DNA of 55,177 nt. It comes from a virus (taxonomy: Duplodnaviria > Caudoviricetes). The position numbers and the translations under genes were made by a program. The stretch is taken from IMG/VR virus record IMGVR_UViG_3300023175_000047, positions 1 to 55,177 of that record, one strand, 5' to 3'. The notes beneath the pieces were generated by a model, which made no database searches, was not told the origin of the DNA, and was given only the letters and a program-made list of their open reading frames with translations. This document shows, piece after piece, positions 30,701 through 32,729 of this stretch; position 1 is the stretch's first letter, and each line of letters starts with the position of its first letter.

Positions 30701-30949
30701 CCTGCTAAATCTGTAGCATTTAGTGAGACAAGAAGCACAAATGAATTTGCTTTGTCAAACGTAGGTCCAGATAACATAGTATATCTTCACGCAAAAGATC
30801 GTAATGGTCATATAACAACAAGCAGTGTTCAATTATCTTTAGTGGTAGATAATCCAACAATTACAACGATAGCTTCACCAATTAATCTAAAGAGAGAAGG
30901 TGGTTACTATACAGGAACACTTGTCTTTGACATTGAATCAAAACCATAA
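24728..30949 (+). CDS. Giant tandem Ig-like repeat structural protein ending in a partial Ig domain
   Basis: Roughly 17-18 repeats of about 100 aa: D-P-I...A-D-GI-Y...W...(V/A)KD-FGN-S; ends at TLVFDIESKP. Confidence 0.88.
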   Translation: MAIIGSISLHSATLLSTTPLAYQVWINVNAVSDSELIRMSTYYDSALVNNNIIPTAPVPKYSYGTTAVPYLLGISSTSTGWHNVEVEFENNGGEVVRYITSFYLDLQSPTINNFSKIDIRKNGAGDFVVSWDVDLHDDAGISKIKLGRVQDPSYDKVISIPIGIQDYHETIHIIVPQTIPNNSTHDFYIEVTDYSDNTITSATVPVFFTTTPPVITNYRLNYISQTATDYILDMYIDCVFATTQKIVGYSSTFATPVASFNNYLATGGTTSINTQVVIDKATNNAGTYKTYAQVKDDFGNLSPVEEYQFTLDTFAPTGDLNMSYAEKVGTHPSQFYYANLHFTATDSGLVTHYAFSDVGPSHLTTWNPIVPPSTVVNFRQTYNLGQSGSKTVYAKYRDFSGNESDVYAEAMTIDDSPPAVSLGFVQGEKRADGDYDALFDITAIDSDAIKFIKLYAVNSNTGNLVSGHTNNWIQITDTTHLIERRPIVVPAAEHEDLLDFHFQARDIYGNESTKPVVTVQFDKQKPTINNFVFTDTTKGATEYRIHTKFNAIDNHGIVAYRYRFDNVTLAPWIYTTKTTHLEKDIYLDVPNPSDLGAAKNFLVQVKDAFGNESNANSLFVKTNDIPPEKTPGTDGLKFAGGALTPTDYVLSFQVDVKDIDPTDNVYFYSLEVDNASTINWKQFSTPNNAISEILTINLPRTTTGKHDFYLRVADKYKNISPVYNLEYDLDAIQTVGGLTLNNVSKSATTYTANVELFAVDNRKIQSYFIQNSDGGPEVEVAIVPPVQVFNEFYEFPIGLAAGPKWATVRYKDNFDNMSDTYRIDFDLDTTDPYFEYYFAGSTSNATHIFLDFDLDFKDNYQLQYYKFWDSTVLEPSDWTEIPRANNVSVSKTVTIPKGVLNPTFTWKVLDFFGNANTGSFSKYITTSPPTTTLSLNSISYSVGDINVGVDYDIMASVGSMVDKYEVDINSGSHNYTVDLFPNQLNPKGTFYHSYPITEVQSDIKVHATSDYGYRESAPMTLTTLFDSTVPIVSNTTFLGSYGIAGDYVLQFRVTATDTGSGIRKIIFRDPAGHIPDVVSLSPLTHSLDQNINVRVDGSYPLNSISPTIFVEDLLGNRSTGNTVPSIYLDNAGAAVNNVIINSNTRYPSVIHTSPGVGANTNMIPVEFEAHDYSEITHYLYSPLLNVPFNPATWKAVPTPALDISISETINLDTLGFTEGHGAFFIHTKDRFDNISVAGEVFEYDKTKPTVSIAFQNRIERANVAGVDHFVVPYTMTYNDNHAEVIHKVETTRIGGVWSSANVSTIVPEALSAVKNEAYYIPVGNYGDTRINVSVIDRLKNQSANTDFDVWLEDNPPVINYGIINGGAAYTTNKNVLVRIDMLDDRGVTDYLISNTANLVWNSPGWATIPLSPATAITSTFSVDLEALGFDQGTCNVHMYIKDFCQNVSNTVSTIIYDYEPPEVVDFKIDGFVRTPSTFDITLNAHAYDVTSGLVEYYISQSNTETVYNPVPGTPPPIINDGSAPTEFKKVEQVSVRDAGWKWFYFSAIDAAGNVSEKANTRMYIDSIAPVGVTFESASPINKYYLNPTQTNFDYTVTDDYALSVLGYNFDGGASTLFRSYPAPVGFALGTTVDSGTFSATTMVALPDGPHTIFLVVKDTFNNTVEVPYEFYYDSQPPEITRFEVSEIRPWVDPPPSTDFWVEFDLEVKDAAGIDRYELYDNGILMATVPVNDTHVAQTPKLHTTLSTLTPPTGLDIQFVLLEDIFGVSSTEVFALVNGYTGTPAEDTAILNVASAKGKVSVSELSLAARPETDIRQFHKGSAPAPQTLAAAIPTFDDTNLMPVGYKLFSLEQRTNPVSDSRMVDFMKNEPGHFVYADEDITESSVNQYTKVAYTPIYTNASVDREIHVYEIYAYDYAGNMASNTCIEAFHDGTSLAISNMLVDGAASISRTGITNEVFTADMDSLVEVEKYALTIQPTIDFYNAFWEDISTPAKSVAFSETRSTNEFALSNVGPDNIVYLHAKDRNGHITTSSVQLSLVVDNPTITTIASPINLKREGGYYTGTLVFDIESKP

Positions 30950-30959
30950 GGAATAAAGA

Positions 30960-32729
30960 ATGGCAGCACCAGTTCTTAAGAAAATTCACTTTGCTTATCC
31001 GGGTGTATCAGGTATTTCAAAAAACCTAGGGATCATGGGCGATCCTCTTTATTATATTAATGTAGACCCTGCTAGTGATGCTTATTTCTACTTAGAGTAT
31101 GATCAAGCTCTTGATGACCATACTCTACCAAACTTGAGTAGAATAGAAGACCGAGTAGTCAATGGCGGATCTACAGTACTTGCTCTGCTTGATGTTACAG
31201 AAATCAATGGTAGCTTTCCTGGAGGTCTGAGTGCTTATTTGACAATTAGTTCTTCTCCCTGGGCAACTCAAGATGGTACATATAGTGTGATCGGACAAAC
31301 AAAGGTTACTACTGATAAACTTCATTGGGAAACTGCTAATGCAATTGATCCTGCTAACCTTGCTGATTCTACTCTTTCACATAACTGTCTTTACTTTCAA
31401 GTTCCGGCCGGACAATTAAAAGATGGTCATATATATAATATTCTTAGATATCGAGATCTAATCGACAATAAGGCTCTTGAAGCAGAGGGTGTTGGTAGGA
31501 TTCCTGGGCTTATGTGGGAGACTAATCTAGCTATTGACGCCACCGCACCTACTATTGTATCAGCAACACCTGCGCCTGCTGCTACAAATGTGCCTGTGAA
31601 TTCACAAATTATAATTGATTTTAGTGAAGAAGTTACAATACCAGCAAGCGTGACTTACAGTGTTCCAAATGATCCTGATAATTGGATTGCTGACCCTGCG
31701 GTTGTTACATATACAGCAAGCCCATCAAGAGTTACGATCACTCCGATCAATCCTTTTGGACCATTTACGACAGTTAATGTTCAGGTGCCTCTTGGATATG
31801 TTATTACAGACAATTCATCAAACCTATTAAATCCAATAGGTTGGTTTTTTACGACTGGACCACCACCGCCACCACCGCCACCACCGCCACCACCACCAGA
31901 TACTCGAGTGCCGATTGAAGCATATGCGATTGGCTTTACTAAAGATCCAGATAATTTCAAATCAATACCTTTGACAAAAAGTGGTACCATTACTCAAGAA
32001 TTTAAAATACCTGCTGTAGATATTGATGGTCCAAAAATCATGTATTTGAGATTACGAGATCAAGATGGTCTGATTTCAACAAATTATCGTATCGCTTTGA
32101 GAGTTTTAGATTTTGAATTAGAAACATTTGAAGTAGATACTCATGGTTATTGTGGAGGAACAACAAATCAAATTGATGTTTTATTCGATACAGATACAGA
32201 TCCTACTACAATGGAATATGGATTCCTTATAGATGATTCTGGTGAACCAACTGTTTGGAACCCTATAACTCCTTTGACTTTTGACAGCGTTGGTAAATAC
32301 AAATTCAATTTCAATTTAGATGTTTCAATCATTGGTAGTGGTCAACATGACTTATATGTTTGGTTGAGAACATTAGAAGGTGAAAAGAAATTCTGTAAAA
32401 CTGATTTTGTGAGTGAACCAATTCCTGCTGATCCATATGGTATACTCACAATTAAAAAATCAATGATTGACGGTGACAAGAAAAAAGTTTGGGTAGAAGC
32501 AAATATCTTTGACGCTGGTGTTGGAGTTTCAGCAATTAGTTTTGTTGAATCAATAAATCCAGCAAGTTTTGAAAGTATAAATATAATACAAAATAAACGA
32601 ATTACAAAATTATTTGAGTATGATGCTTCCGCAAACACAACAAATACGTTCAATTTAATTATCGAAGATGCTGTGGGTAGAACTTCAGCTTTAATTACAA
32701 CCTCTATTGACTTGAGCGGTGTTTACTGA
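30960..32729 (+). CDS. Structural protein: N-terminal domain, Big_5/SbsA-like Ig domain, poly-Pro linker, Ig-like repeats
   Basis: DATAPTIVSATPAPAATNVPVNS-I-IDFSE...W-FTTG is a Big_5-like pattern; 13-Pro run; then LRDQDG, LRTLEG and IEDAVGR strands. Confidence 0.85.
   Translation: MAAPVLKKIHFAYPGVSGISKNLGIMGDPLYYINVDPASDAYFYLEYDQALDDHTLPNLSRIEDRVVNGGSTVLALLDVTEINGSFPGGLSAYLTISSSPWATQDGTYSVIGQTKVTTDKLHWETANAIDPANLADSTLSHNCLYFQVPAGQLKDGHIYNILRYRDLIDNKALEAEGVGRIPGLMWETNLAIDATAPTIVSATPAPAATNVPVNSQIIIDFSEEVTIPASVTYSVPNDPDNWIADPAVVTYTASPSRVTITPINPFGPFTTVNVQVPLGYVITDNSSNLLNPIGWFFTTGPPPPPPPPPPPPPDTRVPIEAYAIGFTKDPDNFKSIPLTKSGTITQEFKIPAVDIDGPKIMYLRLRDQDGLISTNYRIALRVLDFELETFEVDTHGYCGGTTNQIDVLFDTDTDPTTMEYGFLIDDSGEPTVWNPITPLTFDSVGKYKFNFNLDVSIIGSGQHDLYVWLRTLEGEKKFCKTDFVSEPIPADPYGILTIKKSMIDGDKKKVWVEANIFDAGVGVSAISFVESINPASFESINIIQNKRITKLFEYDASANTTNTFNLIIEDAVGRTSALITTSIDLSGVY
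31860..31898 (+). repeat. (CCACCACCG)n microsatellite encoding poly-Pro
   Basis: Seen directly. Confidence 0.9.

Follow-up and report, generated by a model that had tools for sequence, protein, structure and literature searches.

An Immunoglobulin-like Repeat Divided between Two Adjacent Putative Fibre Genes of Uncultured Phages, and the Predicted Docking of Its Halves

The complete IMG/VR virus record IMGVR_UViG_3300023175_000047 (a marine phage of the Caudoviricetes; 55,177 bases, 35.6% G+C, completeness estimate 31%), referred to here at its full length as the window, carries in its centre a long series of structural genes, all on one strand, in which one immunoglobulin (Ig)-like repeat of a putative fibre is divided between two adjacent genes, P1 and P2. 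Comparison with relatives showed that a cassette in the B-C loop of this repeat has split the gene in two: the short first part of the repeat that closes P1 (the plug), the remainder inside P2 (the socket) and the junction DNA are conserved, the cassette between them varies, and the same design recurs at a second site of the window. The anatomy and evolution of the split are solid, and docking of the two halves is predicted by structural modelling. The explanation considered probable here is that cassette fission in the B-C loop is followed by re-docking of the halves through β-strand complementation, which would create a branched fibre with a swappable branch.

Anatomy of the divided repeat and its fused relatives

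The elements of the locus, with their positions in the window, are the following.

24728..30949, plus strand: P1, an open reading frame (ORF) of 2073 amino acids (aa) with about 15 diverged Ig-like repeats; putative fibre or adhesin-like virion protein
30848..30946, plus strand: plug, the C-terminal 33 aa of P1 (DNPTITTIASPINLKREGGYYTGTLVFDIESKP), with strands A, A′ and B of an additional repeat
30947..30962, plus strand: junction, with TAA stop, AAGGA Shine-Dalgarno sequence and ATG start
30960..32729, plus strand: P2, 589 aa, with a variable cassette at the N-terminus, then linker, socket and two Ig-like domains
30960..31535, plus strand: insert N-terminal domain, P2 residues 1-192, defined by alignment; 1 to 3 tandem copies in relatives
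31536..31856, plus strand: Big_5 Ig-like domain, P2 residues 193-299 (Pfam PF13205, E 2.7e-15)
31860..31898, plus strand: poly-Pro linker, 13 Pro, P2 residues 301-313, (CCACCACCG)x4.3 in tandem
31899..32108, plus strand: socket, P2 residues 314-383 (DTRVPIEAYAIGFTKDPDNFKSIPL...RIALRVL), comprising strands C to G of the divided repeat
32109..32726, plus strand: two terminal Ig-like domains; profile match at residues 400-467, E 1.5e-14; β-sandwiches in the AlphaFold2 model

The repeats of P1 are about 100 aa long and diverged, and a profile iterated from one of them recovered 13 strong copies (E 1e-16 to 1e-27) and two weak ones. No named Ig family of Pfam reached its threshold on these repeats, the best being Big_3_3 (PF13750) with 22 bits versus a cut-off of 27, and the PHROG scan returned no family for P1 or P2; the Pfam and PHROG scans covered nine of the 31 tabulated window ORFs of at least 90 aa (38 are listed): P1 and P2 plus seven others of the locus. 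The Ig-like fold was recognized in an AlphaFold2 model of the homologous C-terminal region of L006, a relative in which the two genes are fused (relatives are designated here by L and P numbers); Foldseek matched this model to tandem Ig-like arrays, including RTX-adhesin extender repeats (6xi1, E 6.6e-11) and GhpA fragments. In P2, the Big_5 domain scored 57.4 bits versus a cut-off of 23.6 and covers profile positions 1-105 of 105; it is also present in L002 and P0015.

The C-terminal end of P1, ..VVDNPTITTIASPINLKREGGYYTGTLVFDIESKP, aligns to the beginning of intact repeats such as FDSTVPIVSNTTFLGSYGIAGDYVLQFRVTAT-DTGSGI, and the plug was delimited by alignment to the intact repeats and to fused alleles, its strands being taken from the AlphaFold2 model of a fused allele. 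Directly after the prolines of P2 stands DTRVPIEAYAIG..., and from residue 314 the protein reads DTRVPIEAYAIGFTKDPDNFKSIPL...KIMYLRLRDQDGLISTNYRIALRVL. The P1 repeat profile matches P2 319-374 at profile positions 25-82 only, the first ~24 positions being missing so that the match sets in at strand C, with an i-Evalue of 0.099; because this match is weak, the window alone would only suggest a split, which is taken as real because the fused alleles of relatives show it. The first-pass annotation of this DNA had placed the end of P1 inside a new repeat and its resumption in the ORF at 30960 after 13 prolines, and the positions and sequences were confirmed, with fused alleles reading through the junction. 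It had also assigned to the insert a ribosome-binding site, a new N-terminal domain and a Big_5-like domain, all of which were found (AAGGA, residues 1-192 and the Pfam match at E 2.7e-15, respectively); its count of two strands before the break became three β segments (A, A′ and B) in the AlphaFold2 model.

Relatives were drawn from protein and contig collections, which returned a small family. Searches of the "phages" collection by blastn and tblastn gave no match. Single-sequence scans of viral_contigs returned no match to P2 or to the C-terminal part of ORF 15569, a gene of the second split described below, and an alignment-based scan of the same collection returned L001 as the sole match, cut at the contig end. 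The alleles recovered are of two kinds.

Fused alleles (about 12 distinct sequences with one ORF through the junction): L006/P0017, L007/L008, P0012, P0013, P0014, P0019, P0020, P0021, P0022, P0023, P0024 (fragment), L011/L012
Split alleles (about 7 distinct): window, P0004, L002/L003, L004, P0005, P0006/L005, P0015; P0011 for the upstream half

The fused genes are long (2299 aa in L008; 2346 aa in P0012, exactly 2070 + 276) and read through the junction as ..GNYYIGELVINAEDDNNQIEAYAIGLDPDPKNFKSIPL.. in L006 and ..GNYYIGTLNFDIDDSNYIEAYAMGYSKDPTNYKSIPL.. in P0012. In a tblastn comparison with L006, the match to P1 runs to residue 2070 and stops at nt 3682, and that to P2 begins with residue 314 at nt 3683 without a change of frame; the downstream gene order is identical in fused and split loci. 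The split alleles have common ends, ..FD[IV]E[ST]KP followed by a stop, then TAAGGAATAARGAATG and later DTRVPIEAYA, and they share junction DNA as well: the window, L002 and L004 agree in every letter of the 23-nt string AAAACCATAAGGAATAARGAATG. Between these constant ends lie inserts of ~300 to ~1030 aa (313 aa in the window, ~545 in L002, ~848 in L004 and ~1028 in P0015), the module content of which differs among phages. L002 begins with a different first module (MSLNYSNVN...), L004 contains three tandem copies of the N-terminal module, and P0015 contains two Big_5 domains plus another module in two copies. Only the window allele has the poly-Pro run; AVA or APP stands in its place in relatives. 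That the split is an artefact or decay, through misassembly or through a nonsense mutation newly arisen in a single genome, has a negligible probability and nothing found in its favour, since the same stop, ribosome-binding site and start occur in independent contigs from different samples with 39-56% protein identity around the junction.

P1 and P2 are 10 nt apart, P2 lying in the +1 frame relative to P1, and the AAGGA Shine-Dalgarno sequence is located 7 nt upstream of the P2 ATG. This proximity and the conservation of the junction DNA would fit the synthesis of one polypeptide through recoding (read-through plus frameshift, or ribosomal bypass) or splicing, the insert then being a loop insertion. 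Such a product is very improbable: in addition to the change of frame and the conserved Shine-Dalgarno sequence and ATG, stop codons occur in all three frames between P1 and P2, so there is no read-through fusion; the frame change excludes an intein; and an intron is discounted because an Rfam scan of 30000..33000 (E up to 1) returned no family. The flanks of the insert show no direct or inverted repeats and no transposon signature, and the junction motif has no second occurrence in the window. P1 and P2 are probably co-transcribed, since sites resembling promoters or terminators do not exceed their frequency in shuffled sequences.

Some further features of the relatives were recorded. The P2 homologue of L004 lies at 955..4329, and its three tandem N-terminal modules each start with ..PP.[IL]V.[IF]H..Y.., which suggests module amplification inside this insert. 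P0019, L011 and L012 carry an extra ~17 aa (..YEDTITNL.GSYTAQTDN..) in the split repeat, downstream of the split site, so the repeat tolerates loop insertions elsewhere too. P0012, the closest fused relative, is labelled at its source as a metagenome-assembled genome of "Candidatus Poseidoniales archaeon" (120-kb contig), and L002 lies on a 346-kb contig; these are either mis-binned phage contigs or hints on the host or genome size.

Structure of the break and predicted docking

The AlphaFold2 model of the fused L006 piece (445 aa, 12-row alignment) has a mean predicted local distance difference test (pLDDT) score of 86.6 and comprises strands at 144-148, 152-157 and 160-170, a five-residue loop, and strands from 176-182 onward; it also contains β-sandwich domains across the terminal two-domain region. 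The break of the window maps to the loop between strands 160-170 and 176-182. Strands A, A′ and B are consequently borne by P1 and strands C to G by P2, with the break in the B-C loop: with the full domain defined by the fused alleles, P2 encodes an incomplete β-sandwich, the missing strands of which lie on another polypeptide.

Complex prediction of P1 1930-2073 with P2 314-589 gave scores on the interface measure ipSAE (interaction prediction score from aligned errors) of 0.78, 0.77 and 0.80, the best of three controls scoring 0.00; the runs agreed in at least 94% of contacts, and the pLDDT of the partner was at least 82. The predicted interface involves residues 112-144 of the P1 fragment (the plug) and parts of the preceding domain versus residues 2-70 of the P2 fragment (the socket). 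P1 YYTGTLVFD is predicted to run antiparallel to P2 TITQEFKIPA, and P1 I123 to touch P2 L67; these modelled contacts correspond to pairing of B with E and of A with G, as a rebuilt Ig sandwich would show. Structure prediction of both fragments together, which had been proposed in the first-pass annotation, thus passes its controls. Complementation in cis, by the N-terminus of P2 itself, was considered separately and ruled out: the conserved MAAP..IHF.Y start belongs to the repeated N-terminal module, and L002 and P0015 begin with an unrelated module.

According to the proposed mechanism, the ancestor would have been a single gene for a fibre of Ig-like repeats, longer than 2300 aa, which was cut in two by a cassette landing in the B-C loop of the third-from-last repeat. 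The cassette would have brought a stop, a ribosome-binding site, a start, at least one new N-terminal domain and a flexible linker, its domains in the window being the ~190-aa N-terminal domain and Big_5. As a consequence of this insertion, P1 ends in an orphan A-A′-B hairpin (the plug), and P2 carries the C-to-G remainder (the socket) behind its new N-terminal domains. The plug may then enter the socket post-translationally to form one complete β-sandwich, in which case the last three domains of P2 would continue the P1 fibre and its N-terminal domains would form a side branch at the former loop. The conserved flanks may further serve as recombination points for exchange of the branch: because plug, socket and 23-nt junction are conserved while the cassette varies, the site would also be a swap point for branch modules, which are probably host-binding.

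The conservation of the two halves bears on whether they dock at all. Fission without re-docking would make the plug a tolerated leftover and the P2 domain truncated or disordered, with contacts, if any, to other parts of the virion. For this unlikely alternative it may be said that P1-P2 binding is predicted only, that the upstream end is visible in just three split loci, and that the window and L002 lineages are close (92% identity), so that retention of the plug could partly reflect recent ancestry. However, the plug is retained whole (33 aa) in all three split loci with upstream sequence (window, L002/L003 and L004) as well as in P0011, and none of the split loci seen has an earlier stop or a decayed tail; loss or divergence of the terminal strands, named in the first-pass annotation as one outcome that would speak against docking, was not observed in them. 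Between the window and L004, 21 of 34 plug residues are identical, compared with 18/37 and 17/36 in blocks of the preceding domain, and eight of these 21 are encoded by different codons. The plug is therefore considered to be under purifying selection and not in decay, because it is better conserved than the preceding domain and shows synonymous codon changes. Within P2, conservation is highest in the socket: its codons 1-69, counted from the end of the linker, are ~80% identical, whereas most other blocks are at 40-60% (the KKKVWVEAN block, codons 185-207, has 16 of 23 identical), and in its first block 8 of 19 codons of identical residues differ from those of L005. A five-strand remainder, moreover, would leave its core exposed, and the complex model scored 0.78 against 0.00 for the best control. 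The kept plug, the fused alleles and the complex prediction support the earlier proposal of docking over decay, the binding itself being a prediction.

History of the split and its recurrence at a second site

A maximum-likelihood tree was constructed from a 271-column C-terminal part with 20 rows (19 distinct); it is unrooted, the midpoint root serving for drawing only. Twelve rows are fused, among them all deep and long branches, and the eight split rows fall within one 10-row subclade together with the fused P0012 and P0013. The cut unit has many intact homologous repeats beside it, which makes the fission of an intact domain the simpler direction. The reversed direction, in which two docking genes were ancestral and the long single genes arose by cassette deletion (gene fusion), is quite improbable. 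An unrooted tree allows it, and the grouping of the fused P0012 with the split group of the window (support 94/96) could reflect re-fusion; against it stand the confinement of the eight split rows to one subclade, with every deep and long branch among the 12 fused rows, and the membership of the split unit in a series of more than 15 homologous repeats that are otherwise intact, for which an intact ancestor is simpler. The history of the split alleles is read from the sequences as one apparent fission event followed by recombination, because the split forms have identical junctions and one pair bears a recombination patch, described next; a second fission event or a re-fusion is possible.

Several points weigh against the preferred explanation of fission with re-docking. 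The split alleles form no single clade in the best tree, where two state changes are needed, so the history includes recombination, a second event or re-fusion; forcing them into one clade costs 14.7 log-likelihood units and was not rejected by the approximately unbiased test (p-AU 0.067). The first 23 socket codons of the window and L004 are 99% identical in DNA, which indicates a recombination patch rather than selection for this pair, and the conservation of the plug comes from one divergent comparison of 34 codons. Binding of P1 to P2 is a prediction, and the complex model is support, not proof: the halves of split genes tend to pass complex prediction through likeness to solved folds, and the mark used for the score, attained by 58 of the 80 complexes of solved structure and by 2 of the 110 mismatched pairs, is only an approximate calibration here because the alignments were self-built and shallow (5 and 6 rows, some of them fused alleles truncated at the junction). 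In addition, the AlphaFold2 model of the insert N-terminal domain (P2 1-195) failed, with a pLDDT of 53 that is too low for use, and P1 and P2, lacking a PHROG family, are putative virion proteins. Searches of the ESM Atlas with the insert N-terminal domain gave scores below 0.9 and unnamed structural neighbours, which are leads only.

The same design is found at another position of the window.

13905..19786, plus strand: second split (split 1, the P1/P2 split being split 2), ORF 13905..15536 followed by ORF 15569..19786

The first of these ORFs ends in ..NVTHSDSESDLF (in longer form ..GVVELNVTHSDSESDLF), and the second contains ~660 to 680 aa of modules between poly-Gly runs before the repeat resumes as ..GSIILKTGTAPSF...RVFYYLRDIAGNIKSVGSIDVY; four such runs, of 6, 11, 15 and 16 Gly, separate the modules. 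Four homologues of split 1 were found, of which P0166 (1009 aa) is fused and P0163, P0164 and P0165 are of split type, with other N-terminal modules and Gly/Ser- or Gly/Ala-rich linkers. In P0166, residues 212-279 correspond to the end of the first ORF (..KLTHADVGSGL) and, after three residues, 283-1009 correspond to 682-1405 of the second. The recurrence claimed in the first-pass annotation is thus borne out by a fused allele and, as described below, by a shared module family, and its suggested search of relatives for fused alleles or different inserts was positive for both splits. Its view that both splits fall in the same loop holds for the B-C loop as a whole; the breaks lie a few residues apart, split 2 before and split 1 after a D-x-x-S-G-like turn. 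The homopolymeric linkers to which it drew attention exist in the window (poly-Pro and poly-Gly) but are not conserved, being AVA or APP at split 2 and Gly/Ser-rich at split 1 in relatives.

A module of ORF 15569 (residues 463-643; 16955..17497), located between the last two poly-Gly runs, is 45% identical to the two tandem modules in the split-2 insert of P0015 (residues 251-617; E 1e-42 and 6e-39). Because this module is common to inserts at both split sites, the same cassette family appears to occupy both. The shared module, of ~180 aa, has the pattern ..WNW..GGY.LGA.I..A.PGLI.W.WD.. (also WNW..GARIKGAKPGLI) and matched no Pfam family. A broader proposition, to which roughly even chances are given, is that marine phages possess a natural split-Ig "plug and socket", in which cassettes of stop, ribosome-binding site, start and domain land in B-C loops, the domain reassembles non-covalently and without a chaperone to present an exchangeable branch, and one cassette family is distributed over at least two fibre genes.

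If the halves dock, a fibre would gain a branch by cutting a domain, without evolving a dedicated docking domain, and the coexistence of fused and split orthologues in nature proves the route of cutting. The system would provide a testable model of how uncultured marine phages equip their giant Ig-repeat fibres with distal modules and exchange them; if correct, it would constitute a general route by which fibres gain or swap host-binding modules, and it would bring into the assembly of phage virions the strand complementation familiar from bacterial pili. Protein engineers could be offered natural pairs of a small tag (33 aa) and a socket (about 70 aa), as a source of orthogonal docking pairs. 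For annotation, adjacent structural genes that appear "truncated" may form one functional unit.

Comparison with known systems and neighbouring genes

The split would work like donor-strand complementation, yet it is a member of none of the families compared. In chaperone-usher pili (Fim, Pap), an incomplete Ig-like fold that lacks its C-terminal G strand is completed by a strand of another subunit, the N-terminal extension of the next pilin, with the participation of a chaperone and an usher. The phage joint, as predicted, resembles this in that strands of a second polypeptide complete an Ig-like fold and produce a stable non-covalent joint in an extracellular fibre. In the phage, however, the N-terminal A-A′-B strands are missing and would be supplied by the C-terminus of the preceding protein, and the joint goes back to the fission of a domain that relatives keep intact; no chaperone, usher or pilin family was found among the nine scanned window ORFs by Pfam or PHROG. 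In the type V pili of Bacteroidota (FimA/Mfa1), C-terminal strands fill a groove in the N-terminal domain of the next subunit; proteolysis opens this groove by removing an N-terminal strand, and a homopolymer results. The groove of the phage protein is, by contrast, encoded as such, without a protease, and the joint would be single and heterotypic. Engineered split Ig-like domains, such as SpyTag/SpyCatcher (from CnaB2) and split fibronectin domains, are cut in a loop, after which tag and remainder reassemble spontaneously. The phage repeat is likewise broken within a loop, which yields a short tag with strands and a larger remaining part, but the split is natural and recurrent and implies no covalent bond, whereas the Spy pair forms an isopeptide bond.

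Branched receptor-binding-protein systems occur in CBA120 and G7C. Systems of this kind are also described in podophages of Klebsiella (KP32, K11 and KP34; PMC13352976). As described, they would share with the phage split the docking of a second fibre or spike on a first, giving branched host recognition with exchangeable parts (a prediction in the present case), and they appear to use a dedicated branching domain together with a conserved N-terminal docking peptide on the second protein. The joint described here differs in being one Ig-like repeat cut in two, for which fused orthologues exist. Its predicted docking element is C-terminal on P1 and internal in P2, which places it outside the branched receptor-binding-protein class, and no Pfam or PHROG family of a T4 gp10-like branching domain or docking peptide was found in P1 or P2. 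In the podophages A1002 and GP4, chain-like fibre subunits attach to another tail protein via an augmented β-sheet, and in A1002 fibre dimers are docked by β-sheet augmentation (PMC13730344). As described there, this is edge-to-edge augmentation of complete domains on a "rope" protein, and not one domain split between genes. The top-ranked results of a literature search contained no account of an Ig-like domain split between two phage fibre genes, which is no proof of absence.

Downstream of P2, two adjoining fibre genes (32937..38801; 1254 and 694 aa) each end in a Peptidase_S74-type intramolecular chaperone region. The first, P0003 (32937..36701), has a C-terminal Peptidase_S74 chaperone domain and matches to tail-fibre PHROGs. 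In tblastn, the C-terminal ~90 aa of each of the two proteins (P0003 1149-1241; ORF 36717 604-694) also match the L002 homologue of the other, at 33-34% identity. Directly upstream of P1, among fibre genes, the region 22010..24671 contains two genes that look non-structural, one encoding 561 aa with weak matches to Methyltransf_24 and Peptidase_U32 and the other a 324-aa multi-pass membrane protein; in L002, a different ORF (at least 981 aa within the locus, its start lying outside) stands directly upstream of the P1 homologue. At 1565..2224, a 219-aa ORF with an HNH-like N-terminus and about seven ..SEETKAKIS.. repeats adjoins the structural module and is probably a homing-endonuclease-type gene.

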